Shown here: positions 3,957 to 22,418 of the stretch, in pieces | Position numbering within the stretch: position 1 is the stretch's first letter | Layout of the letters: every line of letters begins with the position of its first letter | Assembly (NCBI GenBank): GCA_052168235.1 | Contig: JBQLZK010000088.1 | Location: 1 to 22,696, forward strand | From: Thainema sp. | GTDB lineage: Bacteria; Cyanobacteriota; Cyanobacteriia; Phormidesmidales; Phormidesmidaceae | Length of the DNA stretch: 22,696 nt | Direction: 5' to 3' | The notes under the pieces: generated by a model | Told to the model about the DNA's origin: nothing | What the model saw: the letters and a program-made list of their open reading frames with translations, nothing else | Database searches by the model: none | Translations under genes and position numbers: made by a program

Positions 3957-5874
3957 CGGTGTTATCGACCATGACCGTATGCGCGCAAGCATCAACGATG
4001 GCCTGCTTCAGTTTGGGCGCAGCCTTTTCAAGCTGATTTAAGCTGTTGCCAATGTCATAAATACTGCAGTTGGGCGGCGTTTGGGGTAATTCTTGCGTAG
4101 CGGCATTGGGTAAGCAAAACAGGCCGGAACGTAGGGCATAAGCGGCATCTTCCGTTTTGCTGTGACCGACTCGTGCCAGTCCGGTTAAAACCGTGACGCA
4201 GTCCGACCAGATTTGTTCAACCTGGGTGTACTCCACCTGACCGCGATTGTTTTGCTCCGGCTTAAAGTAGGGCATTAGCCGTCGCTGTAGCACGATTTGC
4301 AGCACATACTCCGACAGCGAGAGCCGACCGTCAGCTCGTACCAAAGCCTTAATCGTGTTGAACACGCGACCGCACTGTTTAGTCGAAATAGTGCGAATAG
4401 CCGGAATCGTCAAATCCAGTAACGGTAAACGCAGCCGGGGATTCAAGTTCAAGATCAACGACTGGAACTGACGAACAGCATTGACGATATCTTCGGGTTC
4501 GTTTTGCTCCAGCAGCGCTAACTGCTTTTGACGGACGTCTTCGCTGTCCGGATCGAGCAGCAGACCATAGACGACTGCGATCGCACCATGGGGATGTCGC
4601 AACGCTTGGCGGAGTTCCTCCGGCATCTTGGCCATCGTCTGCTGAACATAGGCCAAATGCTCAGGATCGACTGTTCCTACTTGATTGACGACCTGAGTAG
4701 CAGACACTTGTACTGTCGCTGAACCGGAGGCCGATCCAGCTGCGGTTATCCCGTTAGCAGCAGTCGCTACCGCAGCTACAGGTGGAGTTACTGTCCCACC
4801 TAAACCCATGACTGCGGCTTCAGATTGGGCAATACTTGCTTGATTAACAACGGTTTCAATTCCAGATGGCTGAGTCGTTGCTATTGCTTGGAACTGACCC
4901 ACAACACCAAGCCGCTTAATTCGGATTGCCAGTGGTGGATGGGTGGCAAACCAATCAAATGAAAATAATCCGTTAGCCAGCGCATTGCTGAAAAACATGT
5001 GGCTGGCTTCTTCTGCTGCCGGGGACATCACTCGCGATCCGGTGGATAGCTGATTGATCTTTGATAGAGCGCTACTCAAGCCACTTGGATCACGGGTAAA
5101 CTGAACGGCTGAGGCATCGGCCAAAAACTCTCGCTGCCTTGAAACGGCAGCTTTAATCAGTCGGCCAAAGAAAACGCCGATCAGGCCAACCGCCACTAGC
5201 GTCAGGCCCAAGATGGCAAAGCCGCCTTGATTCTTGCCGCGTCGCGAACTACCAGAACTCCGCAGCAGCACGCGACCAATGATATAGAGCACCAAAATCC
5301 CGTTCAACACGCCAATTAGCCGAATATTCAGCCGCATGTCACCGTTCAGAATGTGGCTAAACTCGTGGGCGATCACGCCCTGCAACTCGTCCCGCGTCAG
5401 GTTATCCAGACAGCCACGGGTAACGGCCACGACGGCTTGATTGGGACTGAAACCAGCGGCAAAGGCGTTGATTCCCGCCTCATGCTGTAGCACATAGACC
5501 TGTGGCACTGAAATACCAGATGCGATCGCCATTTCTTCGACCACATTGAGCAAACGCTGCTCGTTTGGATCTTGTGTTTCGACCGTAACCAGTTGGCCAC
5601 CCAAATCCAGAGCAATGGCTGCCCCGCCCGCTTTGAGCGCCTGAATCTTCCAGAGGCTCCCAAACCCAACCGTAGCCAATACAGCACTCGCCACTGTGAA
5701 AAACAAGCCTGGATCCCACAGCGGCAGCAAGCTGCCCGTTGTATGAGACGTCATCACGGTAAAAACAACGGCCAGGTAGACAATTGCAATCATGCTGCTT
5801 AGCGCCAGGGCAAATAGCAGCAGCAACTGCACCGTATTACGGCGGGCCTGGTCTTGATGCTCAAAAAAATTCAT
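3871..5874 (-). CDS. M48 family (HtpX-like) zinc metallopeptidase, long form
   Basis: AHEFSH zinc motif, NAFAAG, SRQREFLADASA and THPPL; typical MNFFEHQDQARR N-terminus; downstream of lemA. Confidence 0.9.
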   Translation of the reverse strand: MNFFEHQDQARRNTVQLLLLFALALSSMIAIVYLAVVFTVMTSHTTGSLLPLWDPGLFFTVASAVLATVGFGSLWKIQALKAGGAAIALDLGGQLVTVETQDPNEQRLLNVVEEMAIASGISVPQVYVLQHEAGINAFAAGFSPNQAVVAVTRGCLDNLTRDELQGVIAHEFSHILNGDMRLNIRLIGVLNGILVLYIIGRVLLRSSGSSRRGKNQGGFAILGLTLVAVGLIGVFFGRLIKAAVSRQREFLADASAVQFTRDPSGLSSALSKINQLSTGSRVMSPAAEEASHMFFSNALANGLFSFDWFATHPPLAIRIKRLGVVGQFQAIATTQPSGIETVVNQASIAQSEAAVMGLGGTVTPPVAAVATAANGITAAGSASGSATVQVSATQVVNQVGTVDPEHLAYVQQTMAKMPEELRQALRHPHGAIAVVYGLLLDPDSEDVRQKQLALLEQNEPEDIVNAVRQFQSLILNLNPRLRLPLLDLTIPAIRTISTKQCGRVFNTIKALVRADGRLSLSEYVLQIVLQRRLMPYFKPEQNNRGQVEYTQVEQIWSDCVTVLTGLARVGHSKTEDAAYALRSGLFCLPNAATQELPQTPPNCSIYDIGNSLNQLEKAAPKLKQAIVDACAHTVMVDNTVTIQEAELLRAIVIALDCPLPPFLEKAA

Positions 5875-5931
5875 GGTGAATGGCCGATTGACAGCGATTT
5901 ATGTTAAATCCGCACGCGAGAATCGTTAAGT

Positions 5932-5964
5932 TTGCCAAACGCTTGCCGTGCAAGCATTTGGCAA
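5932..5964 (-). other. Intergenic RNA hairpin between lemA and the M48 gene
   Basis: 15-bp stem with a 3-nt loop. Its single mismatch becomes a G-U pair only on the minus (transcribed) strand. Confidence 0.55.
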
Positions 5965-5992
5965 GAATTACAGATTTTCAACCAGACTGTGA

Positions 5993-6580
5993 CTAGAACG
6001 AAACGCGGGGCGCTTCACGAACTTCGGGGCTGCTTTCTTCGAGGAGTTCAGCTGTACCAAAGTTAAACATGCCCGCAATGATGTTACTCGGGAAGACTTC
6101 TCGCTTCGTGTTGTACAGCGTGACCGCGTCGTTAAAGGCTTGACGAGCAAAGGAAATCTTATTCTCAGTGGAGCGCAGTTCTTCCATCAGCTGGCCCATG
6201 TTTTGATTGGCCTTCAGGTCAGGATAAGCTTCCGACAGAGCAAAGAAGCGACCCAGCACACCCGTCAGCGCCGCTTCCGCTTGACCCAACTGGCGCATTG
6301 CTTGGGGATCACCCGGTGCTTGTGCCGCTTGACTGCTGGCCGATACAGCCATATTGCGAGCTTGAATCACGGCTTCCAAGGTTTCCCGCTCATGCTTCAT
6401 GTAGCCTTTGACGGTTTCGACCAGATTGGGAATCAGATCGTAGCGGCGACGGAGCTGCACATCGATTTGAGCGTAGGCATTTTGGTAGCGATTACGCAGG
6501 GTGACAAGGCTGTTGTAGCCGCCAATTGCGATCGCAGCTACGACGCCAATTACGACAATTAGAAAAATGAACAAGCCCAT
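5993..6580 (-). CDS. lemA: LemA family protein
   Basis: N-terminal TM helix, QIDVQLRRRYDLIPNLVETVKGY, EAYPDLKAN, TENKISFARQAFND and a C-terminal PRVSF. The ATG at 6580 has an AAGAGG RBS. Confidence 0.93.
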   Translation of the reverse strand: MGLFIFLIVVIGVVAAIAIGGYNSLVTLRNRYQNAYAQIDVQLRRRYDLIPNLVETVKGYMKHERETLEAVIQARNMAVSASSQAAQAPGDPQAMRQLGQAEAALTGVLGRFFALSEAYPDLKANQNMGQLMEELRSTENKISFARQAFNDAVTLYNTKREVFPSNIIAGMFNFGTAELLEESSPEVREAPRVSF

Positions 6581-6834
6581 GAATATTCCTCTTGATTCAC
6601 TTGATTCATTGCTATTTGAACAGGGTTCGAATGCTGCTTTGCTTGAAGGCAAAATCTTGATGCCTCTAGAATGCCCGTTTGGTTGAAATCAGAACATGAT
6701 GTTCATATTCCTTTAGAAGAGCATTATGAGAACCAACACAGCTCCACAGCGATAGTTCTATCTACAACAATGTCAAAGGTGAATCCAGATCCTTGTTATG
6801 TAAGTAGACTTTATTGGAAATAAAGTTTTTGGGG

Positions 6835-6885
6835 TCGGAAATTGTTTTGTAGCGCGGCTCCGCCGCGCTACAAAACAATTTCCGA
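6835..6885. repeat. Perfect 24-bp inverted repeat with 3-nt loop (TCC on +, GGA on -)
   Basis: TCGGAAATTGTTTTGTAGCGCGGC-TCC-GCCGCGCTACAAAACAATTTCCGA. Confidence 0.95.
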
Positions 6886-6923
6886 TAAGGTCTAGTGTAA
6901 GGTAGGCGACAGATGGGGGGTCA

Positions 6924-6965
6924 GTTTTAGGTGTTGGGTACTAGGTGCTGGGGACTGAGTGCTTG
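6924..6965. repeat. Degenerate heptamer tandem repeat (STRR-like)
   Basis: GTTTTAG GTGTTGG GTACTAG GTGCTGG GGACTGA GTGCTTG. Confidence 0.55.
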
Positions 6966-7010
6966 AGGTATAGCAGTAGTCAAATTGGTCAGGACATTGA
7001 AAACTTTAGA

Positions 7011-7042
7011 AACGTTCCAACGTTTAAATGTTCAAACGTTAA
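7011..7042. repeat. Octamer tandem repeat AACGTTNN x4
   Basis: AACGTTCC AACGTTTA AATGTTCA AACGTTAA. Confidence 0.7.
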
Positions 7043-7126
7043 ACCTACAAATGACACCAAAACAACCAAGGCTATAGATAGAAAATTCGCCTCACTCCTC
7101 GTATCAGATCCGTGTATCAGAACTCA

Positions 7127-7177
7127 ATTTATTTTTCGTGAAGCGCTTGCGGAGCAAGCGCTTCACGAAAAATAAAT
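7127..7177. repeat. Perfect 24-bp inverted repeat with GGA loop; may also terminate the 7187-7729 gene
   Basis: ATTTATTTTTCGTGAAGCGCTTGC-GGA-GCAAGCGCTTCACGAAAAATAAAT, about 10 nt past the stop of the minus-strand ORF. Confidence 0.95.
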
Positions 7178-7186
7178 CATGGGTTT

Positions 7187-7729
7187 TCAACCGGACTTCA
7201 TATCACTCCTCACTTCCGAAGGAAACGGTCTAATCCACTTTGAGCGAAATGCCCAGTCTAGACCAACGCGAATTGCTGCAAACAATAGGATTCCCTCCAG
7301 GGTAAAGAGCCCGGCGCTAACGGTGGCGCTGAGCCATGCATCGCTGCACTGATAGCTCAGATCGGCTTGAGCCAAACCGCGAGTCAAACCAAATGCCAGT
7401 ACCGCACCAGATTTCAGATGCGTGTTGGTATCCTGTCGCAGGATGTAGCGATAGGTTGCGCCAAATAAAAAACCGCTAAAACCTGCGATCGCACCACTAA
7501 TCCAGACCGTTCTCGTCAGTCGGGGCCACAACATTATGATGATGGGCTCAGCCGAAGTTGGTGCCTGAAGCGTAGTTATCAGCTTTGCGACGGTGGTAGA
7601 GATTGAATCAGCAAATTCCTCATGCAGAATTAGGAGTGAGATGAAGATAAACAGTGCGATCGCACCACCGAGAAGTCCGGCTTTGAGAGATTCAAATCGT
7701 TCTGCAGGTGTGAATACCGATGCTGTCAT
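7187..7729 (-). CDS. Conserved cyanobacterial membrane protein of unknown function
   Basis: Several TM segments with motifs ERFESLKAG, LFGATYRYILRQD and HLKSGAVLAFGLTRGL. ATG at 7729 chosen; the track allows 7792. Confidence 0.75.
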   Translation of the reverse strand: MTASVFTPAERFESLKAGLLGGAIALFIFISLLILHEEFADSISTTVAKLITTLQAPTSAEPIIIMLWPRLTRTVWISGAIAGFSGFLFGATYRYILRQDTNTHLKSGAVLAFGLTRGLAQADLSYQCSDAWLSATVSAGLFTLEGILLFAAIRVGLDWAFRSKWIRPFPSEVRSDMKSG

Positions 7730-7827
7730 GGTCACTCTTACGTTGCTGTCAGAAATATTCACCTCAACAACTATACTCACATCGGGTACCAAAACCCAGA
7801 GGGTTTAGTTCGTTGAGACGCAGTCAC

Positions 7828-10206
7828 TTAAGTAACCTGCTGCTGTTGTAATAAGGCTGAAGCTGCGCTGCTATCTAATGGCGGGGCAAAATAGTAGCCT
7901 TGGCCAAACTTACACTGGATCGACTGTAAGTAGGAAAGCTGCCGTGGCGTTTCAACTCCTTCGGCAACGACATCTAGGTCTAAATTGAGCGCAAGATTGA
8001 CAATTGCTTTGACAATCTCCAATTTTTCTACGTCACTTTCCAACAGCGTAATAAACGATCGATCAACTTTGAGAACATCAATTGGAAAGCGATGTAGATA
8101 GCTCAGTGACGAATAACCTGTACCAAAATCATCTAGACAAACATCAATTTTCCTCGTGCGGATTTGATCGAGAATGCTGGCAGCAACCTCTGCATTTTCA
8201 ATTAGAGTACTTTCGGTAATCTCAACTTTCAATTGAGATCCCGCAATATCAAATTCGCTCAGAACCTGATCAATTTGCGAGATTAATTTAGGATTGGAAA
8301 ACTGCTTACCCGACAGATTAATATTAATCGCTAGCGGAACTGACAGCTCGAATTCTTGTTGCCAAAGGCGGAGCTGACGGCAAGATTCTTGCAGCACCCA
8401 CAAGTCAATATACGTAACTAACCCGATGTCTTCTGCGACCGGGATAAATTCATCGGGTGGGATCATGCCGCGCTCAGGATGCTGCCAGCGAACAAGCGCT
8501 TCAAATCCAGTAATACGTCCTGTTTCCAAAGAGATAATCGGTTGGTAATAAACGCGCAGTTCTTGACGCTCAATGGCCCGCTGTAGATCACTCTCCAACT
8601 GAAGCTGGTTGAGGGCATGGCCATGCATAGAGACATCAAATATTGCATACTGCCCCCGGTTTCGTCTTTTCGCACGATACATGGCGATATCAGCATCGCG
8701 CAGAAGCTGATCAGGGTTCGTGTAGTGTTCTGCACTCAGGGCAATACCAATACTAGAAGTAATAAAAATCTCGTGCCCATCCAGCACAATCGGAGCTTTT
8801 AAAACCGTATGAATGCGGTGGGCGGCTTCAATAGCATCAGTGGCCGACTGGATATCTTCTAACAGCACCACAAACTCATCGCCGCCCAAGCGCGCAACGG
8901 TATCACCGATACGCAGACAAGACTGTAGCTGCTGAGCCACCGTCTTCAATAGCCGATCACCAACAGAATGCCCCAAACTGTCGTTAATCACCTTAAAACG
9001 GTCTAGATCAAGAAATAGCACCGCGAACTGTAAGCAATCCGTTATTGGCTGACGAAGCGACCGTCGCCGCATCAGATGCAGCGCATGTTCCAAGCGACTC
9101 ATGAGTAACGTTCGATTGGGCAGTCCGGTCAGGGCATCGTGAAAGGCATCGTGGCGCAGTTGGGCTTCAATCCGCTGCCGCTCAGCCAGTTCAGTTTGAG
9201 CCTGCTGATAGAGCTTTGCTTGATGAATTGCGATCGCACATTGATCGGCTATCGCTTTGACCAACGCCACTTCATCATCTGTCCAATGGCGTTGACGGTC
9301 ACACTGCTGTAGGCAAATGCCGCCCAAATAGGTTTGCTGATACAGCAGAGACACAATGATGGTCGAACGGACACTGTAGGAGAGTGAGATCGCTTGAATC
9401 GAAGGCGGAATCTCGCCACAGTAAATGTCATGAATGACAACTGGCTGGTCGGTATTCAATGCGTTGCGATAATGCTCATACAGCGCACAGGTATTCCCTA
9501 GTAGCGACTCACGATCGTCACTGAGATAACTCAAATACCCGATGATTGAGGGAGCGGATAGCTCAATATTAGGCTGAAAAATGCCGCACCGATTGACTTG
9601 CAGCACTTCATGCAATTGATCAACCGTTGTTTGCAGCACCTCTTCTAGCAGCAAGGTTTGCCGCATGGCCTGCACAATGCGATTGACAATGGCTTCTCGC
9701 TTGGCCTGCTGCTCAATTTGTGCGATCGCAGCTTTTTGTTGACGACGCAGCTCAAATTCTTGGAGCGCTCGCTTCAGCACTGTTGGCAACCGAAACAGCC
9801 GATCCTTGAGCACATAGTCGGTCATGCCTGCCTTAATACATTCAACGGCAGCCTCTTCGCCCAAGCTGCCCGTTACCAAAATAAATGGAATATCCTGCCT
9901 AGATGCCTTCAACAGCTCAAACACCTGCAGCCCGTTCAGATTCGGTAACCGATAATCGGACAGCACCACATCATAGGTTTGCGTAGACAAAAGCGTCTGA
10001 CACTGGCTGGCAACAGTCGTAGCATCGTATGTAAACGATATCTGCGCGGCTTCTAGCGTCAGCACAATGAGTTCAATATCTTCAGGAACATCCTCGATAA
10101 TTAGCACGTTGAGTGGAGAGGGCAAGGCTTCCTGTACTGTCACGCCTTGTACTGCTTGTACTGAGGGTTGAACGAGGCTGTTACTCGGCGCATCTCCACT
10201 CATCAT
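7828..10206 (-). CDS. REC-GAF-GGDEF-EAL diguanylate cyclase/phosphodiesterase
   Basis: Receiver domain (LIIED...LSDYRLP...TG...YVLK), GAF (RQTLLLEEVLQTTV...QCAIAIHQAKLY), HDALTGLPNR, intact RLGGDEF, FEALVRW and DDFGTGYSS. Confidence 0.93.
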   Translation of the reverse strand: MMSGDAPSNSLVQPSVQAVQGVTVQEALPSPLNVLIIEDVPEDIELIVLTLEAAQISFTYDATTVASQCQTLLSTQTYDVVLSDYRLPNLNGLQVFELLKASRQDIPFILVTGSLGEEAAVECIKAGMTDYVLKDRLFRLPTVLKRALQEFELRRQQKAAIAQIEQQAKREAIVNRIVQAMRQTLLLEEVLQTTVDQLHEVLQVNRCGIFQPNIELSAPSIIGYLSYLSDDRESLLGNTCALYEHYRNALNTDQPVVIHDIYCGEIPPSIQAISLSYSVRSTIIVSLLYQQTYLGGICLQQCDRQRHWTDDEVALVKAIADQCAIAIHQAKLYQQAQTELAERQRIEAQLRHDAFHDALTGLPNRTLLMSRLEHALHLMRRRSLRQPITDCLQFAVLFLDLDRFKVINDSLGHSVGDRLLKTVAQQLQSCLRIGDTVARLGGDEFVVLLEDIQSATDAIEAAHRIHTVLKAPIVLDGHEIFITSSIGIALSAEHYTNPDQLLRDADIAMYRAKRRNRGQYAIFDVSMHGHALNQLQLESDLQRAIERQELRVYYQPIISLETGRITGFEALVRWQHPERGMIPPDEFIPVAEDIGLVTYIDLWVLQESCRQLRLWQQEFELSVPLAININLSGKQFSNPKLISQIDQVLSEFDIAGSQLKVEITESTLIENAEVAASILDQIRTRKIDVCLDDFGTGYSSLSYLHRFPIDVLKVDRSFITLLESDVEKLEIVKAIVNLALNLDLDVVAEGVETPRQLSYLQSIQCKFGQGYYFAPPLDSSAASALLQQQQVT

Positions 10207-10332
10207 GGATGGTTCCGTTTTATCCTGCCGCCAATTTTTACATCTTAAATCATTCAGCTAGTACCAAACTGAATGTAAACTTCATGTCTTATAGCTCATT
10301 ATTGAGTTGTGTTCCAAGCCCCTAAGAGGGTA

Positions 10333-10397
10333 ATTTTGTCGTCACAAATTTTCGCCACCCTTTGCCGCCACCCTTTGTTGTAACAAATTGTCGCCAC
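10333..10397. repeat. Degenerate 13-bp tandem array, 5 units
   Basis: ATTTTGTCGTCAC AAATTTTCGCCAC CCTTTGCCGCCAC CCTTTGTTGTAAC AAATTGTCGCCAC. Confidence 0.75.
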
Positions 10398-10442
10398 AAT
10401 AGAGCAGCCACACGATCCCTCTGGATACAAGGCAAACGCGAG

Positions 10443-10883
10443 TTAGAGTCGGGGCGTTTGATTGATCTGCATCCAATAGAGGCCAACCTGTTGAGACACC
10501 TCCTGAAATCGCTGAAAATCGAGTGGCTTAATCACGTAACTATTGACACCCAGTTCGTAACAGGCTTCGATATCCTGATTTTCGGCTGAAGAGGTCATGA
10601 CAACAACGACAAGGTTTTGGGTGCGGGGATGTTGGCGAATCGCTTCTAAAACCTGAATGCCGTCAACTTTGGGTAGCTTCAAATCCAGCAAAATCATCCG
10701 AGGCAGCGGACGGGATGGGGCAACATCGCCATTTTGACCAAACAGGTACAGCAAGGCTTGCTCTCCATCTTCCGCAACATCCATTTGATTAATGAAGGGA
10801 TAATCCTCAAGTGCTAAGCGGATCAGCTCAACATCGTTCGGATCATCTTCGACGACTAACAGACGGGACGGACTAATGACCAT
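10443..10883 (-). CDS. Single-domain response regulator, Rcp-like (phytochrome-partner type)
   Basis: LLVVEDD, ILLDLKLPKVDG, MTSS, GVNSYVIKP and the Rcp-type C-terminal YWxxIN..P. ATG at 10883; the start may be slightly upstream. Confidence 0.88.
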   Translation of the reverse strand: MVISPSRLLVVEDDPNDVELIRLALEDYPFINQMDVAEDGEQALLYLFGQNGDVAPSRPLPRMILLDLKLPKVDGIQVLEAIRQHPRTQNLVVVVMTSSAENQDIEACYELGVNSYVIKPLDFQRFQEVSQQVGLYWMQINQTPRL

Positions 10884-11057
10884 GTTTAAGACCATATGGA
10901 TGAGATAAATTACCTGCACAACGCAGCACCCATTGTCTTATTTATAACATAAAGATCAGTGTATACACGTAAATTATCTGGCAAACGTTTAAACTTGCTA
11001 ATCTGCGATCGCACCTGACAACGCCTATATCCCTCTAATCTGGCCAATCAAATCAAT

Positions 11058-11474
11058 TCAAGATGGAATACTATAAGGCACAACGTTCTCCTGCTCATTG
11101 GGATCGTTGCGGGCGACAATGGCGCGAGCGGGGTCAGTTTGGCTGAGATTTCTGGCTGTATGCGGCACACCCGGCGGAATGTAAAGGAAATCTCCGGCCC
11201 GATTGATGCTCGACTTTTCCAACTCTTTGCCATAGCGGGTTTCGACTTCACCCTCTAGCACGTAAATTCCCGTTTCAAAGCCCTGATGAAAGTGGGGTGC
11301 AGCGGTTGCTCCAGGCGGAATCACAACCAAGTGCATCGACAGTCCAGTGGTACCTGCAGTTGAGCCGGAAATGCCTAGAAAGTAGGGCAGCCGCTGACGG
11401 GTCATCACTTCAGCTTCAGGGCGAATGGTAACAAGTTCAGCATCAGAGATGAGATGAGGATTGGATGGATGCAT
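11058..11474 (-). CDS. Cupin domain protein
   Basis: Cupin motifs IPPG...PHFHQGFETGIYVLEG and GDFLYIPPGVPH. ATG at 11474 preferred. Confidence 0.88.
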   Translation of the reverse strand: MHPSNPHLISDAELVTIRPEAEVMTRQRLPYFLGISGSTAGTTGLSMHLVVIPPGATAAPHFHQGFETGIYVLEGEVETRYGKELEKSSINRAGDFLYIPPGVPHTARNLSQTDPARAIVARNDPNEQENVVPYSIPS

Positions 11475-13595: not shown

Positions 13596-14078
13596 ATGGA
13601 ACTCAAGTTACGCCCTGCCACTGCTACTGACTATCCTGCTGTTTGCCATCTGTTTGCCGATGCTGATGAGCTGTTCTTGGTTTGCCCCCGCAGCAAGTTT
13701 CCGCTGACGGTTGAGCAGATGCAGCAGATTGAATGTGAGCGGCATGACCTAACGGTGGCAGAGCATGAGAATACCGTCGTTGGGTTTGCCAATCTCTATA
13801 ACGTTGTGCCAGGAGAGCGGGCATTCATTGGCAATGTGATTATCCATCGCGACTATCGCGGACGCGGCTGGGGTAAGCAATTGCTGCAATACATGATGGC
13901 GCGAGTCGCCGAACACCATCAGCTCCCGCAAATCCATATTTCGGTGATGAATTCCAATACGCCTGCGCTGTTGCTCTATGCCCGATTGGGGTTTCAGCCC
14001 TATGCAATGGATCTGGCCCAAACGCCAAAAGGGAACTGGGTCGGCGTGCTGCATTTGAGACAAGAGGTTACTCGCTAA
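13596..14078 (+). CDS. GNAT family N-acetyltransferase
   Basis: Motif A (IIHRDYRGRGWGKQLL) and motif B (NTPALLLYARLGF). Confidence 0.9.
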   Translation: MELKLRPATATDYPAVCHLFADADELFLVCPRSKFPLTVEQMQQIECERHDLTVAEHENTVVGFANLYNVVPGERAFIGNVIIHRDYRGRGWGKQLLQYMMARVAEHHQLPQIHISVMNSNTPALLLYARLGFQPYAMDLAQTPKGNWVGVLHLRQEVTR

Positions 14079-14116
14079 AATAAAGCCAATCCAACTAACT
14101 CTAATGGCAAACCACA

Positions 14117-14269
14117 ATGATTGCCGTTCCACACTACATCAGCCCACGCCACCGTACATCCGAAAACACCTGGGAAGTCGTCGTCTATAAGGCAGATGAT
14201 TTGATTTGACTAAAAAGCATTGCTCTGAACTTTGCGATCGCTGAACTGTATCGCGATTTAGACAATTAG
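14117..14269 (+). pseudogene. Collapsed Uma2 (DUF820) family endonuclease remnant
   Basis: One frame reads MIAVPHYISP-RHRTSENTWEVVVYKADDLI*LKSIALNFAIAELYRDLDN*. This resembles a Uma2 N-terminus joined directly to a Uma2 C-terminus with the core missing, and has an in-frame TGA at 14207-14209. Family recognised by eye. Confidence 0.65.
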
Positions 14270-14309
14270 CTTTTGCAGGTCAGATTGGCGACACATACTC
14301 CATGCTGAT

Positions 14310-14338
14310 GTTGGGTTTCATGCTTCAACCTAACCTAC
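14310..14338 (-). repeat. GTAG-type REP-like element
   Basis: Minus strand GTAG-GTTAGGTTGAAGCATGAAACCCAAC: a GTAG tag followed by an imperfect palindrome. Confidence 0.6.
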
Positions 14339-14469
14339 TAGATCTGAGATCGCGCTGTATAGCGGTTTAAACAAATAGTTTTTTAAGAGTGAACGTCTGA
14401 CAAGAATCAAGTCTAAAAGATACCATTTAAGTTGAATTCACATATATATCGAGAATCAAGCTTACCGCC

Positions 14470-15855
14470 ATGGGTTCCGACGAAAGAAGCAGTGGGATAA
14501 TAAACTTCCCCCAATATTCAAGCAATCAAAGGCGTGGGAAAAAAGGAGTTCGTATAGTCGATGGAATTATCAGTGACGACCTAGACTGGATTTTTGTACC
14601 TATTCCTCAGGACTCTGATATAGGAATTGATGCCCATATTGAGGTGTTAACAGAAGGTACAGCACATGGAACTGGAAGGTTAATAGCTGCACAAATCAAA
14701 TGTGGTTCCTCATGGCTTGAAGAAAAAAACTCAGAAGGATATGTTTTTAGAGGAGAATTAAAACATCTTGACTACTATCTAAATTATTCTTTGCCAGTCC
14801 TCATCATTCTCTGCGATCCGAGTTCTAAAGAATGTTGGTGGTCTAGAGTTTCACCTACTGCTATTGAACGAACTCAGAAAGCCTGGAAAATTACAGTTCC
14901 GTTTAAGCAAAAGCTTGATAAAAATTGTCTTGATCAACTAGTTGATATTTCAAAAGCAGGGCAAATTGGGCATGACGCTTTCTTCTGGTGGAGCCCGTAT
15001 AAAATTGCTTGGCATCATGGTATAGAAATGGTAATTTTACCTATTCATCCAGAACAGGGGAAAGCTTTGTGTATGAGCAGCAATTTAATTACGAATGCTC
15101 AATATAAAGGATTAGTAGAAGAAGAATGGGTTGGGGAGCCAATAGGAAATTGCTATTCAGGTGAATTACTAATAGGGCCCTATTGGTCTAAGTTGTTTTC
15201 TCCTTGGGAAGATCCAAGATTTCAAGATCCGTATAAACCAGTTGTTTGTGTTTCTTATTGGAATGCTTCGCTCTACTGCGATTGGTTACATGAAAAGTAC
15301 GGGTGCTACGTAAAGCTGCCAACGCCTAGATTATGGGATTTTGCAGCATTCGGTACAGAATTTCCACACTATAATCCCAACGATTTTCTAAAATCAAGCT
15401 GTAAAATCCATCATCAAACAGATTGCCCTGCTGTGATTGATTTCAAGGGAGAGCGAACAAATCCCTGGGGAATAGCTGATTTACTAGGTAATGTTTGGGA
15501 GTGGTGTGCTCTTGATGATGAAGGTTTTATTGGAAGAGGTGCTAATCGCAATGTTCATCGACATCGTTACAGTGGTTCCTGTGATAAGAATCCTCAACTT
15601 AAGGGAGGAAGTTTCTTAGAAGATTTAGCATCTATAGTACCTTCAATGGCTTCAGCTCAATTAGCTGAAGGTAGTAGTACCCGTCAATTCGATATTGGCT
15701 TTCGCATAACTACGGAGGTTTCAGTATCTAGCTTACCAACCGATGTTCAAAACAAATTAAAGCTATGCAAGCGACTCTTACCCCGTAATCGAGCGTACAA
15801 AAATCCATCTCTTTATCCATCTGACTTTAAATTGAAAGATCTCAGAAAACTGTAA
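14470..15855 (+). CDS. DUF4365-like PD-(D/E)xK nuclease domain fused to an FGE-sulfatase (SUMF1/EgtB/PvdO-fold) domain
   Basis: N-terminal domain: DIGIDAHIE...LIAAQIKCG...HLDYY...LPVLIIL...WW. C-terminal domain: ITNAQY, PVVCVSYWNASLYCDWL, LPT..WDFAA, NPWGIADLLGNVWEW, KGGSF and IGFR. AT-rich relative to its neighbours. Confidence 0.8.
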   Translation: MGSDERSSGIINFPQYSSNQRRGKKGVRIVDGIISDDLDWIFVPIPQDSDIGIDAHIEVLTEGTAHGTGRLIAAQIKCGSSWLEEKNSEGYVFRGELKHLDYYLNYSLPVLIILCDPSSKECWWSRVSPTAIERTQKAWKITVPFKQKLDKNCLDQLVDISKAGQIGHDAFFWWSPYKIAWHHGIEMVILPIHPEQGKALCMSSNLITNAQYKGLVEEEWVGEPIGNCYSGELLIGPYWSKLFSPWEDPRFQDPYKPVVCVSYWNASLYCDWLHEKYGCYVKLPTPRLWDFAAFGTEFPHYNPNDFLKSSCKIHHQTDCPAVIDFKGERTNPWGIADLLGNVWEWCALDDEGFIGRGANRNVHRHRYSGSCDKNPQLKGGSFLEDLASIVPSMASAQLAEGSSTRQFDIGFRITTEVSVSSLPTDVQNKLKLCKRLLPRNRAYKNPSLYPSDFKLKDLRKL

Positions 15856-15980
15856 GACACTAAAGATATGGCGATCTCAACTCTTCCAAAACTCACTGAC
15901 AACGATCACAGAAAATCTAACGGCTGACGCTTCACCAACGATCGCATCTCCCGCTTTAGAGCGATCGCACCTAGCAATAA

Positions 15981-16586
15981 TCAACGAAACATTTGCACTG
16001 CATAGGCTTTGCCGGAATCAACGTAGATGCCATAGCCGAAGTGCGTGTATTCAGGTCGAAGCAAGTTTTCGCGGTGTCCGTCGCTGTACATCCAGCCTTT
16101 TTGAAACTCTTCTGCTAAGCCATAGGTGCGATTAATACCCAGGTTGAACCAGAAGTAGGCAATGTTTTCTCCGGCTCCGGTTTCGCCACCCACTGCAACG
16201 TATCGATCCGTGGGCGTTTTCCCTTCTGGGGAAACGTGATCGAAAAAGTCGCGCTTGAGCATGTCTTCAGCATGTCCCTGAGCGGCTTTTGACAAGAGCG
16301 GGTCTTCAACGAGAGCAGGCAAACCGTTCAAAGTGCGATCGCGATTGGCCAACTCCAGTGCAAATTGCTTCAGTTCATCTTGCGATCGCGTTTGATGCGC
16401 TGTCCACACCGTCACGGTTGGCTCGCCGATGCGCCAGTCGGCCTCACCACTGCCATTGGAGAAATAGAACAGCTCCCTGGAGTCCACCAAAGCAGCCAGT
16501 AGGAAAACTGAAGTAATCAGCCCGATCGCCCATTTTTGAGGCAACAGATAGCCAGTCTTCGCTCTCGCCCGATGTCGTCGAACCAT
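15981..16586 (-). CDS. CAP (SCP/Tpx/PR-1) domain protein
   Basis: N-terminal hydrophobic helix, LELANRDR, AAQGHAEDM...FFDH, GENIA, WMYSDGHRENLL and YAVQMF. Confidence 0.9.
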   Translation of the reverse strand: MVRRHRARAKTGYLLPQKWAIGLITSVFLLAALVDSRELFYFSNGSGEADWRIGEPTVTVWTAHQTRSQDELKQFALELANRDRTLNGLPALVEDPLLSKAAQGHAEDMLKRDFFDHVSPEGKTPTDRYVAVGGETGAGENIAYFWFNLGINRTYGLAEEFQKGWMYSDGHRENLLRPEYTHFGYGIYVDSGKAYAVQMFR

Positions 16587-18857: not shown

Positions 18858-18892
18858 CCGACTTCGTTCCTTCACACCGCAAGCCATTGCCC

Positions 18893-19498
18893 ATGTCGCC
18901 CAAAATTTTGCTCACGTCTTTCACGATTTGGGAAGATCATCATCAGTCCAACTCCGCTGACGATCTGCTGGAACTAATGACGCAAGAGTGCGACAGGATA
19001 ATACCTAGCCTCAGCACTCAACTCCACTATTTACGCCAGCTTCCGGTGGACTATGATCATGCTCCGGCTCGGATTATTGAAGCCGTAAATCATCTGCAAC
19101 CCCACAGCATCATTTGCTGCGGCATGGCTGAAACTCGGCCTCGGCTCAGCGTTGAATCATGCGGCACCCATCGCCATGACCGAGACGATGTCTATCACAC
19201 ACCACTGCCGCTTGATCAACTCATTCAGGATCTCACCTTCACCGATATCAGCTACGATGCGGGCAGCTTTGTCTGCAACCACACCTACTACTCGGTGCTG
19301 AAACACGTCCATAGTCAACGACTGTCGTCGCCTTGCCTATTCGTACATGTCCCGGTTTTGACTACCGATAATCAAGCAGCGATCCTGACCGATTTCACTC
19401 AAATTGTGCAGCGAATTAGCGTCTGGGTGGAGTTCTCTACGGCTGCGCCAACAACAAAAACAGCTCTAAGCTCACCATACACACGGCAAAAATCGTGA
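18893..19498 (+). CDS. pcp: Pyroglutamyl-peptidase I (peptidase C15) family protein
   Basis: KILLTSF, LPVDY and the catalytic Glu/Cys/His contexts LSVE, DAGSFVCNHTYY and FVHVP. Confidence 0.85.
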   Translation: MSPKILLTSFTIWEDHHQSNSADDLLELMTQECDRIIPSLSTQLHYLRQLPVDYDHAPARIIEAVNHLQPHSIICCGMAETRPRLSVESCGTHRHDRDDVYHTPLPLDQLIQDLTFTDISYDAGSFVCNHTYYSVLKHVHSQRLSSPCLFVHVPVLTTDNQAAILTDFTQIVQRISVWVEFSTAAPTTKTALSSPYTRQKS

Positions 19499-22418
19499 CC
19501 ACAACCACAGCGCGTCTGGCCTGAGTGAGCTGCTTCTGCAAAACCTGATTCAGCCGTTCATCGGCTAAGCGCTTGGCATCCTCTGCTTCCTGACGTTTGG
19601 CCTGGGCCGTTTTGAGCTGCTGCACCAGTCCCGGTGACTGCTGTTGGCGAATGTAGTCCACCAGGTAGTCATGCACAAGCTGATAGCGTGGCTCTGGCGC
19701 AGCCGGAATTTCAAACACTAGGCCGGAGCCGACCAGGATTTCCAGCACCAGCGCAAAATCTCGCTCTGTCGCATCCTGGAGCAATAGACCTTCCACATCG
19801 GTTTCCAGTTCCTCCCGCGTCTTCTGCGGACGAATGCCGCCTTCTTCCGTCAAGAAAAACAGAATCAGATTGGCTAACTCCTGATTTTCGCGGCCACAGT
19901 CTTGCACCGATTCATGCAGGAAATGCTCCACTAGCACCTGCTTGGGCGAGTCGCCCAAAGCTCGATATTGCGCCAGTGTCGTAATCTCTTCCCGCTGAAG
20001 CTGTGCCCCCACGACCTGAAGTTCAATCGGTCGCACGTCTTGGTGTTCTACCGATAGATCGGCTACCAAGGCATCCACTAAATCTGCATCCAGCTCAAAC
20101 TGCGATCGCTGCGTCAACGTTTCAATCACCGTGCGGGCATCCTGTCGCGAGAAGTTGCCCAGGTAGTAGCGCACGTCTCGACTGAGGATGTCGTTGTTGA
20201 TGATTTCTAAATCCGTCAGCCGTTCGCACTCCAGCAAATAGTGCAGGTAATCTTCCCGCAGTGACAGAATGACGTTAACGAACGGTTGATTGATGCAGTC
20301 ACTCAGAAACTGCCAGAATGCTCGGCGCTCTTGCAGGTCGGGCCATTCAAAGAAGAATTCTTCAAACTGGTCGAAGATCAAGATTAGGAAGTGGTTTTGG
20401 TTGAGGAGGGTGAGGAGTGAGGAGTGAGGAGTGATGGGTAGATGGGTGGATGAGTGGATGGGTGGATGGGAATCGAGGGTGTCTGGGGAAGGGGCGAAGG
20501 GGAGAGCAGAATTCAGTTGGGTGGTGAGGTCGGTGGGCCAGTCAACGTAGTTGTTGAGTGCGATCGCACGTATTCTGCGTCCCTTCAAAAATTTCTGTTG
20601 ATTTAGGCGGGGGATGAGTCCGGCTTTGAGGATGGAGCTTTTGCCGACGCCGGATTGGCCGTGGATGACGGTGAGCTTATACTGGTCGTCTTCGATGCGG
20701 GCGAGCAGGCGATCTACGTCCTGTTGGCGACTGGAGATGACGATGGCGTTGGCTTTTGGGTTGGAGATCTGATCGGGGAGAGGTGCGATCGCATCTTCTG
20801 GTACGCCGACTGTGCTGGGAGATTGCCAGGGCTGAATGGGGACGGCACCGATAAAGGCGCGCAGGCCAAAGCTGCTCTCCACCTGCTCAAGCTGCTGTTT
20901 GACTTGGAAGGCTTTGTGGTAGCTGCCTTTGTCGTAGTAGTGGTCGTGCAGCGTATCCAGCACCAAGCGGTACAAGGTTAAGTCGTAGCGGGGGTTGACC
21001 TGCTGGCTAGCGATTTCCAAATTTTTGATCGCCTGGTTGCGATCGCGCAGGTGAATCTGGGCGGCACCGATCAGATAGTGATACCAGCCCTGCTGAGCCT
21101 GGACGATCCAAACCTGATCGGCGGGAATCTCGACATTGTCCAACAGCGCTAGAGCCTGTTCGCCTTCCCGAATGGCCAGTTTCCACTCTTCCCGAATCAG
21201 TTTAATCTCGGCCAAAAATCCGCGATCACGGGCGCGACGAATCGGATCGTCATAGAGCGCATGCAGTTCTAATGCAGCCAGGGAAACCTCTTCCAGTTCG
21301 TGCCAAATTTCAGGATTGGGCATGGGCAGTCGGCCCAGCTTTTGCAGCACTTCGGCCAAGGCGAGTACGTATCGCGCTACCACGTCTAGCCGATTCGCCT
21401 GCTGAAAGACGGTGAGACTTTCGACAAAATAGCGCCGTGCCTGCTCACAGGCGGTTCGGTAGGTGCTGCGCTGCAACACCGCATAGCTGCGCCACCAGAG
21501 GCCCAGGTAAAACAGCAGGCAGCCATAGCGCTCAGCCGCTGAAATCAGCGGGGCGTGGGCGGTGTGACCAGCATGACAAGCCTGATGAATTTGATCGGTT
21601 AACTGCTGGATATCTGAGTCAGAGTTGGGCAGCGTCACAAGTTGCTCCGCCTGTTCAGCCCGTGCCTGCCAAAAGGCTAAGCTTTGCTCGTATAGCCGCC
21701 GCGCCGTTTCCATTTCACCATTGGCATGGGCATCGCGAGCCTGCACAAAGTCCAGACTGGCCTGCAACTCCGCATCCAGTGCTTCACCCTGCGCCTGGAT
21801 ATCACTCAGGGCAAATTCCAGCTCATATCGTCGGCGCGAACCCGGTTCAATGCCAAATTCTGAATCCGGCAAAAAGCGATCGCTACCCGCATTCAGCGCA
21901 ATCTGAAACAGGCGATTGGCCTCCTGATGCAGCGAATGCAGCAGTTCTCCGGGCGGATAGCCGACTTGGATGGGGGCTGGTGCAAAGGTTTTCAGGTCGG
22001 GTGCGGTGCGGTTGAAGGTTTGCAGCACGTGGTCATTGACCCAGAGGACAATTGGGAAGGCAAAATCCTGCCGCAAACTGTCGCGAATCTGATTAGCCGA
22101 AGCTAAAAATTGGGTCAGCGATTTGACCGTTTCCAGCCCAGTCACAAACACGGCTCTGGGACTGGCTTGAACCTGCTGCTGAATGGCAACTCGTAATCCG
22201 TCCGCATCCGCCGCTAGCTGCACCACCTGCAAATCCCGCATCTGATCATCCGCCTGTAGCGCCTCAATCAGGATGTTTCGTAACCGGACATAGTTACAGC
22301 GCACAAGAATCAGTGAAAAATCGCCCTGGCTGAATAAGAGCGATCGCACAAGCTGATTCAGCGACTCCGCATTGTGGGCCACAATCTCTCCAGCAGTATG
22401 TCCTCGAACGACAGACAT
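19437..22418 (-). CDS. Large STAND-type NTPase: degenerate P-loop-like N-terminus, TPR-like helices, nSTAND1-type NTPase, coiled coil, C-terminal TM
   Basis: Walker A HGQSGVGKSS, Walker B LIFDQFEEFF, SLREDY, RPIELQVVG and YQLVHDYL; TPR-like Ala/Leu/Tyr helices upstream; ends in a hydrophobic helix. Confidence 0.8.
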   Translation of the reverse strand: MSVVRGHTAGEIVAHNAESLNQLVRSLLFSQGDFSLILVRCNYVRLRNILIEALQADDQMRDLQVVQLAADADGLRVAIQQQVQASPRAVFVTGLETVKSLTQFLASANQIRDSLRQDFAFPIVLWVNDHVLQTFNRTAPDLKTFAPAPIQVGYPPGELLHSLHQEANRLFQIALNAGSDRFLPDSEFGIEPGSRRRYELEFALSDIQAQGEALDAELQASLDFVQARDAHANGEMETARRLYEQSLAFWQARAEQAEQLVTLPNSDSDIQQLTDQIHQACHAGHTAHAPLISAAERYGCLLFYLGLWWRSYAVLQRSTYRTACEQARRYFVESLTVFQQANRLDVVARYVLALAEVLQKLGRLPMPNPEIWHELEEVSLAALELHALYDDPIRRARDRGFLAEIKLIREEWKLAIREGEQALALLDNVEIPADQVWIVQAQQGWYHYLIGAAQIHLRDRNQAIKNLEIASQQVNPRYDLTLYRLVLDTLHDHYYDKGSYHKAFQVKQQLEQVESSFGLRAFIGAVPIQPWQSPSTVGVPEDAIAPLPDQISNPKANAIVISSRQQDVDRLLARIEDDQYKLTVIHGQSGVGKSSILKAGLIPRLNQQKFLKGRRIRAIALNNYVDWPTDLTTQLNSALPFAPSPDTLDSHPPIHSSTHLPITPHSSLLTLLNQNHFLILIFDQFEEFFFEWPDLQERRAFWQFLSDCINQPFVNVILSLREDYLHYLLECERLTDLEIINNDILSRDVRYYLGNFSRQDARTVIETLTQRSQFELDADLVDALVADLSVEHQDVRPIELQVVGAQLQREEITTLAQYRALGDSPKQVLVEHFLHESVQDCGRENQELANLILFFLTEEGGIRPQKTREELETDVEGLLLQDATERDFALVLEILVGSGLVFEIPAAPEPRYQLVHDYLVDYIRQQQSPGLVQQLKTAQAKRQEAEDAKRLADERLNQVLQKQLTQARRAVVVVTIFAVCMVSLELFLLLAQP
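20402..20472. repeat. Intragenic STRR-like tandem repeats (7-mers then 8-mers)
   Basis: TGAGGAG at 20402, 20411, 20418 and 20425, then GATGGGTA GATGGGTG GATGAGTG GATGGGTG GATGGGAA (20433-20472). Confidence 0.85.

Follow-up and report, generated by a model that had tools for sequence, protein, structure and literature searches.

A DREN nuclease fused to an FGE-fold module in a cyanobacterium: a candidate single-chain sensor-nuclease

The question and the gene

What would a nuclease do on the same polypeptide chain as a domain with the fold of formylglycine-generating enzyme (FGE), and what would switch it on? The question is raised by a gene in a stretch of DNA from Thainema sp. (assembly GCA_052168235.1, contig JBQLZK010000088.1), all 22,696 nucleotides of which are here called the window. 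The list of open reading frames (ORFs) gives a 461-amino acid (aa) coding sequence that starts with ATG and runs from 14470 to 15855 on the + strand. Pfam and an end-to-end alignment with four orthologues (P0001-P0004, which together with the window protein make five full-length proteins) divide the complete coding sequence into a DREN nuclease, a linker, an FGE-fold module that is the putative sensor, and a conserved tail. An initial annotation, made from the letters of the sequence, had seen a single gene here with a D...QxK pattern and had proposed a horizontally acquired sensor-nuclease of a defence system. On sequence, structure model and analogy taken together, we lean toward reading the product as a cytoplasmic single-chain sensor-nuclease of a prokaryotic conflict system, directed against phages or against mobile elements. 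What the initial annotation overlooked is that the sensor module is swappable, that the nuclease is a DREN, a characterised type gated by oligomerisation, and that the module has a conserved polar signature.

The N-terminal half

Pfam assigns aa 25-158 (14542-14943, +) to DUF4365 (PF14280) with an E-value of 9.3e-33 and a score of 113.7 bits against a cut-off of 24.3, over profile positions 3-136 of 139. Run against the PDB, the profile of alignment A3 finds the DREN-APAZ chains of SPARDA (9jsb_D, 9qbq_A and 9qbp_A) at E 3e-14 to 7e-14; the PADLOC model Aga_REase-PNTD1-PNTD2, which covers the REase domain of proteins associated with short Argonautes, also matches this half (E 4.2e-22), over its positions 4-150 of 429 only. 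An AlphaFold2 model of the full protein, computed from 36 sequences, has a mean predicted local distance difference test score (pLDDT) of 85.7 and a predicted template modelling score of 0.67. In the nuclease domain pLDDT is mostly above 90, and Foldseek places the N-terminal half of the model on the DREN chains 9qcc_Q and 9qcc_M of XauSPARDA over 154 and 152 columns, with root-mean-square deviations of 3.0 and 2.9 Å (E 1.6e-9). A check on whether the N-terminal domain models as a PD-(D/E)xK fold had been proposed at the outset; this match to the DREN of SPARDA answers it positively.

The D...QxK pattern lies in two parts. Residues 50-58 read DIGIDAHIE (D50 to E58; 14617-14643, +) and residues 73-77 read AAQIK, with Q75-I-K77 encoded at 14692-14700 (+). 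D50, G52, I53, D54, E58, Q75 and K77 are invariant in the five full-length proteins, and the D..G.D pattern and QxK are invariant in 66 of 66 DUF4365 relatives (56 from the HMMER listing and 10 from a cluster search). In the alignment of the A3 profile, D54, Q75 and K77 line up with D41, Q60 and K62 of NbaDREN, the three residues whose joint substitution is reported to kill nuclease activity (bioRxiv 10.1101/2023.06.08.544223), and Q75 and K77 correspond to Q62 and K64 of TmuRE, as these residues are named in PMC10810196. Sequence, catalytic residues and predicted fold all place the N-terminal half among the PD-(D/E)xK nucleases of DUF4365/DREN type, and its identity as a DREN is firm.

With that identity comes a mode of control. 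DREN by itself is described as an inactive monomer, held on a flexible-loop tether; filament formation forces it into D2 tetramers, which are active, and the activated nuclease degrades nucleic acids indiscriminately, which causes the cell to die or go dormant (PMC12205087). The 66 relatives of this half are all DUF4365 proteins, and most of their C-termini are unannotated; the domains recognised there are Crr6/DUF1817 (9 proteins), PLDc_2 (3), NADAR-DarT1 (2), DUF6908 (1) and AbiTii (1). In the window protein the nuclease is followed by an inter-domain linker of aa 159-172 (14944-14985, +), which is predicted to be flexible at about aa 166-170, where pLDDT falls below 50; homology to other C-terminal modules begins at about aa 173-174.

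The C-terminal half

The family of this half is FGE-sulfatase (PF03781; aa 195-413, E 5.9e-20, 72.4 bits against a cut-off of 23.3), so that the two assignments made from the letters alone, DUF4365-like and FGE-fold, are both borne out by Pfam above its cut-offs. Taken with its β-strand N-terminal extension, and as delimited by Pfam, Foldseek, PDB matches and 93 relatives, the module occupies aa 173-436 (14986-15777, +). Its top PDB match by sequence is SUMF2 (1y4j, E 8.7e-13). By fold it finds 5nyy (E 3.7e-10), 2q17 and 1y1e, which are bacterial and human FGEs, the FGE paralogue 1y4j, PvdO, and TvpA (2y3c), a variable protein of a diversity-generating retroelement (DGR).

The catalytic pair of human FGE is C336/C341, as named in PDB titles. 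In the window protein GGSF occupies residues 379-382 and GFR residues 410-412, and there is no cysteine at all from G380 to R412; the four orthologues have one cysteine only between the two motifs, so that the missing pair, also remarked on initially, is missing from the whole set. This comparison turns on the absence of any cysteine, since direct alignment to solved FGEs matched the GNVWEW core only. The equivalog models for EgtB, OvoA, SenA, PvdO and GldK score 17.6-27.4 bits against cut-offs of 350-500 (for EgtB, OvoA and SenA, 26-27 bits against 360-420), and none reaches its cut-off. Lacking the cysteine pair and scoring so far below every equivalog cut-off, the FGE-fold domain should be unable to carry out FGE chemistry; profiles and model concur in describing it as an FGE/C-type-lectin (CLec)-fold module and not an FGE-type enzyme.

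Across 67 relatives that are not fused to DREN, 53 positions are at least 80% conserved and constitute a family signature, the polar members of which are H314, D337, E344, D384/D385, T404, H406, D408 and R412. The window copy matches 47 of the 53, deviating at P206L, D265N, R378K, D384E, H406Q and L409I; the relatives deviate at a median of 4 positions (range 0-12). A conserved ligand or cofactor would account for the polar signature no less well than a variable antigen would. The segment from GG(S/G)F to GFR is conserved across the 67 relatives and is 63-81% identical among orthologues. What varies is the loop at aa 353-372 (15526-15585, +), where the commonest residue accounts for a fraction of only 0.11-0.13 of the 67 relatives and up to 27 alignment columns are inserted after residue 362; pLDDT is below 50 at 354-364 and 368-370. 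To judge by the alignment, the module has more the look of a conserved pocket, with a loop for specificity, than of a DGR-type variable surface. It is followed by a clade-specific C-terminal tail, aa 437-461 (15778-15852, +), which is predicted to be disordered (pLDDT below 50 at 439-461) but is conserved, at 56-87% identity among the five full-length proteins.

A sensing role for such modules has precedent in prediction. FGS domains of cyanobacteria are described as combined with at least ten other domains, each N-terminal to FGS, in predicted conflict systems (PMC7159879); CLec/FGE domains have been proposed to be antigen sensors (PMC10907252); and FGE-sulfatase-like sensors are listed among those of defence-associated STANDs (PMC13581612).

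Relatives of the fold are also carried by viruses. Microcystis phages (Ma-LMM01 and the MaMV group; BFVD A0A7F1) encode FGE-sulfatase-like proteins that share 23-31% identity with residues 253-426 of the sensor module and are annotated as 'kinase' or hypothetical. These could be receptor-binding proteins or decoys.

One module, several effectors

An exhaustive HMMER search of 1.84 billion representatives returned 14,797 hits at E ≤1e-3, 1,636 at E ≤1e-10 and 115 at E ≤1e-30, with both halves pooled. A single protein (P0003) among the best 150 hits spans both halves; 56 match only at about aa 12-165, and 93 only at about aa 173-436. These 93 relatives of the C-terminal module are 30-46% identical to it (E 1.1e-56 to 6.6e-29) and cover query residues from about 152 to 446, most of them 173-436. 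Scanned with Pfam at E ≤1e-5, 37 of the 93 have Peptidase_C14 as N-terminal partner (one of these also nSTAND1) and 16 have TIR_2; CHAT is found in 2 (one also with EAD11), EAD7 in 2, EAD11 only in 1, and a protein kinase, together with six FGE repeats, in 1. The FGE domain is the only one recognised in the other 34, many of which are fragments or have N-termini without a recognised domain. The point of attachment is fixed: 60 of 97 relatives match the module from position ≤7 of its hidden Markov model, and the part that precedes it has a median length of 141 aa for TIR, 244 aa for caspase and 168 aa for DREN. As far as sequences can tell, the sensor module is a unit of a large family with interchangeable N-terminal effectors, one combination of which, the metacaspase-FGE-sulfatase fusion, was represented by 33 sequences in a 2012 survey (PMC3501461).

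A quick IQ-TREE phylogeny of 72 modules (26 of 98 being excluded as partial or multi-repeat) is unrooted, so that the direction of change is unreadable. The five DREN-fused modules form a single clade, with a value of 100 in the Shimodaira-Hasegawa-like approximate likelihood ratio test (SH-aLRT), in a poorly resolved region that it shares with caspase-, TIR- and EAD-fused modules. Effector labels are scattered over the tree: the caspase label requires 20 changes, of which well-supported branches force at least 7, and the TIR label 12, at least 3 of them forced. Within the DREN clade the orthologue P0004 appears to be a case of one DREN domain swapped for another on the same sensor, because its C-terminal module is 63-81% identical to those of the other members and its N-terminal half just 20-23%; that half is still DUF4365, with the catalytic residues kept. 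Like-for-like replacement of this sort points to selection for any working DREN on this sensor and is direct comparative evidence of modular sensor-effector design.

Of the plasmid-borne relatives of the sensor module the best is a 523-aa protein named 'SUMF1/EgtB/PvdO' (L002, Mesorhizobium plasmid NZ_CP080523.1, 6823-8819). A 141-aa hypothetical ORF abuts the start of this protein on its 5' side, and the neighbours are a CHAT-domain protein, a RES NAD+ phosphorylase, a restriction endonuclease, an IS5 transposase and PIN-like genes.

Distribution, composition and selection

Only five clusters at 90% identity in about 15 billion proteins contain the DREN-FGE fusion. Four other full-length clusters, 67, 67, 68 and about 48-49% identical to the window protein, came out of a word-indexed search of 5.8 billion clusters; the window protein itself sits in the fifth, which the search of representatives missed because its representative is a 43-aa fragment, so that rarity counts made from representatives can miss full-length members. 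The named members are from unclassified Microcoleus and a Leptolyngbyaceae metagenome-assembled genome, and all are filamentous cyanobacteria. Among 185,579 species-representative genomes there is one DREN-FGE locus, L001. At ≥80% protein coverage the fused architecture occurs in none of 50,697 phage records and none of 72,556 plasmid records, and among BFVD viral proteins DUF4365 and FGE-like domains are found only as separate proteins. A vertically conserved core gene, the outcome that the initial annotation took as adverse to its proposal, would not be expected at one locus in so many genomes, and there in a different, defence-rich context.

The base composition of the gene sets it apart, as had been suspected from a few hand-counted lines. 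Its GC content is 0.395 and that of its third codon positions (GC3) 0.284, against means of 0.521 (sd 0.025) and 0.562 (sd 0.052) for 15 other genes of the window (z of -5.0 and -5.3). The low-GC segment around it extends approximately from 14340 to 15900, with about 0.33-0.45 GC per 120-nt window. With a GC3 of 0.284 next to 0.562 in its neighbours, the gene looks imported. The L001 orthologue likewise has a GC3 of 0.298 against 0.37-0.55 in the other L001 genes. The window has 32 copies of the HIP1 element (GCGATCGC) where 0.58 would be expected, an excess that marks the host as a cyanobacterium. HIP1 is absent from the gene: the HIP1-free gap at 14234-15961 (1727 bp) is the longest in the window, the next being 1574, 1320 and 1283 bp. 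At a density of one site per 709 bp about two sites would be expected in the gene and the Poisson probability of none is about 0.14, so that the gap counts for little by itself, as the initial annotation had already conceded.

Nucleotide homology between the window and L001 is confined to 14518-15830 and 8982-10309 (71.6%) and ends at the ORF ends. Horizontal acquisition thus gains from two sides, the GC3 outlier at both loci and homology that stops with the ORF. A search for insertion scars around the gene yielded nothing but short, imperfect inverted repeats (14340-14353 against 15871-15884, for instance: 14 nt, 86% complementary), which are indistinguishable from chance or from HIP1-like sequence. 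Two accessory claims about the flanks are not borne out. The 'REP-like element' yields no Rfam match within 13900-16200 at E ≤1, where the short repeats are all there is, and the 'Uma2-like remnant', the frame at 14105-14266 (X at its in-frame TGA), yields no Pfam family at E ≤1.

Nei-Gojobori (NG86) ratios of dN to dS against the L001 orthologue are 0.112 for the N-terminal half, 0.132 for the C-terminal module and 0.29 for the tail; dS is saturated at 1.6-1.9, so these ratios are approximate. Values of 0.11-0.13 in both halves, or about 0.12 for the coding sequence, indicate purifying selection. All of this gives the gene the look, in its sequence, of a mobile, accessory, single-gene unit under selection.

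A weak σ70-like promoter match (14397-14426, +; 9 of 12 hexamer positions) lies 44 bp upstream of the ATG. The promoter scan of the gene region gives 3 sites against 5.0 expected from shuffles, which is not above chance, and promoter and terminator scans around the gene found nothing beyond shuffled expectation.

Genomic context

In L001 the order of genes over 2307-11221 is three unannotated ORFs, a Prok-E2_D/Prok-JAB/ThiF (E1) cluster, a zinc-ribbon gene, DarT-DarG, the DREN-FGE gene and a Gp157-like gene. The orthologue (8961-10331) starts 60 bp after DarG, downstream of the E2-JAB-E1 cluster and upstream of the Sipho_Gp157 gene; PADLOC scores DarT at 4.9e-64 and DarG at 2.8e-143. One of the two readable DREN-FGE contexts is thus a defence island. 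At the level of Pfam the E1-E2-JAB cluster resembles a Bil-type ubiquitin-like defence system; from PADLOC it draws only weak E1-E2 hits. Among the 66 close DUF4365 relatives, two carry a fused NADAR domain, the antitoxin domain of DarT1 systems (best E 8.8e-89). The association of DREN with DarT, by NADAR fusion and by the position of the L001 gene after DarTG, may be recurrent or may be coincidence.

Domain scans of 16 window ORFs and 18 L001 ORFs, the scope of all such statements below, found no Piwi/Argonaute domain, no vWA, MoxR/AAA, VMAP or EAD domain and no reverse transcriptase, and the window holds no template-like repeat of the 3' part of the gene. A local vWA-MoxR or DGR partner is rejected, there being none among these ORFs. 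No small partner ORF is common to the two loci, which fits a nuclease that is intrinsically autoinhibited.

The window contains another gene of the conflict type. At 19437-22418 on the - strand it encodes a 993-aa protein with an nSTAND1 nucleoside triphosphatase (NTPase) domain at aa 563-920 (E 5.9e-31); the 550-aa N-terminus matches no family apart from a weak hit to TPR (E 0.028), and about 60 bp at the 3' end of the gene overlap with the end of a convergent C15-peptidase-like ORF (18887-19498). Probably this is a STAND-type conflict gene in its own right, with an NTPase placed unusually close to the C-terminus. A functional tie to the DREN-FGE gene was considered and rejected; the similarity is only generic and the composition (GC 0.552) is native.

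How the protein might work

These findings can be put together in a mechanism. The gene would have been acquired horizontally as a one-gene unit. Its FGE/CLec-fold module would be a binding sensor and DREN the effector, inert as a monomer on a flexible linker, as in SPARDA. The sensor module would bind a ligand derived from the invader, probably multivalent or oligomeric, and binding would cluster copies of the protein, so that DREN oligomers form and become an indiscriminate nuclease; cellular and invader DNA would then be degraded, with abortive infection or dormancy as the outcome. The clustering step is held with less confidence than the sensor-nuclease role itself. What recommends it is that one and the same module sits on all these effectors at one fixed junction, the simplest explanation of which is that its job is to bring copies together. 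Caspase-type proteases are activated by proximity. TIR domains are reported to need oligomerisation (bioRxiv 10.1101/2023.09.23.559129). When the full-length protein was predicted as a pair of copies from alignment A3, the scores were 0.37, 0.37 and 0.30 against a mark of 0.42 (controls, 0.00), which speak neither for nor against self-association.

Several observations pull the other way. Q29, D31 and R33 of the NbaDREN tetramer interface align with the hydrophobic I41, V43 and I45 of the window protein, and with these replacements the tetramer geometry of SPARDA may not transfer. The polar signature is better explained by a ligand that is conserved, by a site for a metal or cofactor, or even by some other catalysis, than by a variable antigen, and the window copy departs from the polar set at D384E and H406Q. 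Only two genomic contexts could be read for the DREN-FGE form, and defence co-localisation, put forward initially as a check, is seen in L001, where the gene follows DarTG, and not in the window, where the neighbours are housekeeping genes (an ABC transporter, GNAT, a CAP-domain protein, RlmN and Lgt). PADLOC matches none of the 5 window proteins tested against it, and what it recognises in the gene product is the nuclease domain, not a system. Low GC, shared by both orthologues, could in part be a property of the gene and not a mark of recent transfer. Finally, a search of the literature found no experiment on this protein or on any stand-alone effector-FGS protein.

Four other explanations compete with an autonomous sensor-nuclease. 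The protein might belong to a conflict system of several genes that are encoded elsewhere (a vWA-MoxR ternary system with VMAP/iSTAND, an EAD-adaptor network or a STAND NTPase) and be switched on in trans. FGS-fused effectors are described as occurring mainly in cyanobacterial vWA-MoxR ternary systems and EAD networks (PMC7159879); 4 of the 93 module relatives have EAD7 or EAD11 and 1 has nSTAND1; the nSTAND1 gene is 3.6 kb away in the window, and the conserved, predicted-disordered tail (437-461) could be a docking peptide. Against this stand the lack of vWA, MoxR/AAA, VMAP and EAD domains at both loci and the fact that the ORF is the only DNA that the two loci have in common; the nSTAND1 gene has native GC, is separated from the DREN-FGE gene by housekeeping genes, and encodes a protein that, over 205 aa, shares just 28% identity with the NTPase of the caspase-nSTAND1-FGE relative P0165. 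Activation in trans is, on this showing, unlikely, if the least so of the four. A good deal less credit goes to periodic hypermutation of the sensor as the target of a DGR elsewhere in the genome, which we consider very improbable. FGE/CLec domains are the usual variable domains of cyanobacterial DGRs, to go by PMC7159879 and PMC10907252. TvpA is among the fold hits, and the 353-372 loop is hypervariable across the family; the window, however, has no template-like repeat, neither locus has a reverse transcriptase among its scanned ORFs, and the segment from GG(S/G)F to GFR, in which DGR variable regions usually sit, is the very segment that is conserved in the relatives and orthologues.

The remaining two explanations give the module a different object. 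In one, the protein would be a modification-dependent restriction enzyme of a type IV-like kind, whose lectin-fold module reads a sugar or adduct on phage DNA and positions the nuclease. The layout, a nuclease with a reader domain, resembles that of type IV restriction enzymes, and C-type-lectin folds are able to bind carbohydrates; the polar, pocket-like signature is conserved, and DUF4365 relatives bear many different C-terminal domains. Yet 55 of the 93 relatives fuse the module to caspase, TIR or CHAT, effectors that do not act on DNA, so that the ligand of the module is unlikely to be the substrate of the nuclease; and the DREN of SPARDA is described as sequence-indiscriminate and gated by assembly (PMC12205087; bioRxiv 10.1101/2023.06.08.544223). 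We would put little weight on this reading, and as little on the other, which sees the FGE-like module as an enzyme whose active site is not built on cysteine (a metal-dependent oxidase or peptide modifier), so that the protein would serve metabolism or maturation or act on its own effector or target. In NCBI, relatives go by the name 'SUMF1/EgtB/PvdO family nonheme iron enzyme', the signature contains conserved His, Asp and Glu, and the 2012 survey speculated that formylglycine modification and proteolysis act jointly (PMC3501461). The cysteine pair is absent, however, no DinB-like iron-binding domain precedes the module, the EgtB, OvoA, SenA and PvdO models score far below their cut-offs, and four unrelated classes of death effector, a mobile accessory distribution and the defence-island context all suit a sensor better.

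The sensor-nuclease reading has a bolder extension, offered tentatively and with distinctly less conviction. The FGE/CLec module would be a self-sufficient, NTPase-free pattern-recognition unit that, on binding a ligand from an invader, clusters whichever proximity-activated effector is attached to it, caspase, TIR, CHAT or DREN; the polar signature would be a shared ligand pocket, the specificity of which the 353-372 loop tunes, and the gene would be the first use of DREN independent of Argonaute. Work on DREN has until now concerned only its part as effector in the Argonaute-guided SPARDA, and FGS/CLec fusions to caspase and TIR are abundant in filamentous cyanobacteria, where a role in conflict or cell death was predicted between 2012 and 2020; a nuclease-bearing member gives this effector-FGS family an output that is easily assayed. 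Should the mechanism hold, lectin-fold sensors would gate death effectors without a STAND or AAA+ NTPase, and a ligand-triggered collateral nuclease could become available for detection tools, as SPARDA is for nucleic acids; under the extension the gene would also be the most tractable handle on what the abundant FGS sensors of multicellular cyanobacteria recognise, DNA degradation being easy to score in E. coli.

The architecture itself is unreported in the literature searched and very rare, yet foreseeable from published domain-network analyses. The literature search turned up no paper describing it, in keeping with what the initial annotation supposed, and none containing both 'DUF4365' and 'sulfatase'; no DUF4365 fusion appears in the portions consulted of the FGS/CLec papers cited here. 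The text supplements of PMC7159879 contain neither 'DUF4365' nor 'FGS', a statement that does not extend to its Figure 1-source data, a possible list of architectures.

Other features of the window

Two perfect hairpins at 6835-6885 and 7127-7177 have 24-nt arms, 100% complementary, and 3-nt loops; their sequences are unrelated to each other, and both fall in the AT-richer intergenic stretch that separates the LemA gene from an unannotated 201-aa ORF. They may be terminators, or else small elements of a mobile or REP type. An inverted repeat at 1633-1692 (30-nt arms, 90% complementary, no spacer, flanked by A/T runs), just downstream of the DUF4079 gene, looks like a bidirectional terminator. 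The 72-nt inverted similarity (76%) between 3153-3224 and 9208-9279 joins a GAF-adenylate cyclase gene to an RR-GAF-GGDEF-EAL gene on the opposite strand, and these are probably paralogous GAF-domain coding segments.

Comparison with known systems

The effector ties the protein to SPARDA (NbaSPARDA, XauSPARDA, TmuRE-Ago), with which it shares a DUF4365/DREN nuclease of the same catalytic D...QxK and the same fold, a flexible linker (of low pLDDT in the model) from effector to non-catalytic sensing part and, by analogy, the expected logic by which sensor-driven assembly frees an indiscriminate nuclease. The likeness ends with the sensor. The C-terminal half is FGE-sulfatase and not APAZ, there is no Argonaute gene among the ORFs scanned, and the sensing part would be a protein- or ligand-binding FGE/CLec fold instead of a guide-RNA machine; the polar residues at the NbaDREN tetramer interface are not kept, and one gene takes the place of two. 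Membership of SPARDA is rejected, there being no APAZ C-terminal to DREN and no adjacent MID-PIWI gene.

The fold ties the protein to three further groups. SUMF2/pFGE and FGE (SUMF1) share the fold and the core motifs GNVWEW, GG.F and GFR, and SUMF2, like the window protein, lacks the catalytic cysteine pair; identity is about 16-19%, and the window protein, unlike them, is cytoplasmic, bacterial and fused to a nuclease, with a polar signature of its own. Identity as an FGE enzyme is rejected: the fold and the profile match are there, and the catalytic cysteine pair is not. DGR variable proteins (TvpA, 2y3c, and the cyanobacterial DGR targets) have in common with it the fold, the β-strand N-terminal extension and a proposed binding role, but here there is locally no pair of template and variable repeats and no reverse transcriptase, and the region that varies in them is conserved. 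Avs and other STAND receptors with an N-terminal nuclease offer a parallel in the pairing of effector and sensor and, by analogy, in ligand-induced oligomerisation (PMC10907252); some are reported to use FGE-sulfatase-like sensors (PMC13581612), but the window protein has no NTPase or oligomerisation module between effector and sensor.

Closest of all are the caspase-, TIR- and CHAT-FGS proteins (as described in PMC3501461 and PMC7159879), which have a homologous C-terminal module, the same syntax with the effector N-terminal, the fixed junction and a cytoplasmic two-domain build. They differ in that the effector here is a nuclease instead of a protease or NADase, and in that the DREN fusion is a small clade (5 rows, SH-aLRT 100) with a conserved tail specific to it. 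By analogy, then, the protein would work most like the caspase- and TIR-FGS proteins, with the effector of SPARDA in place of theirs.

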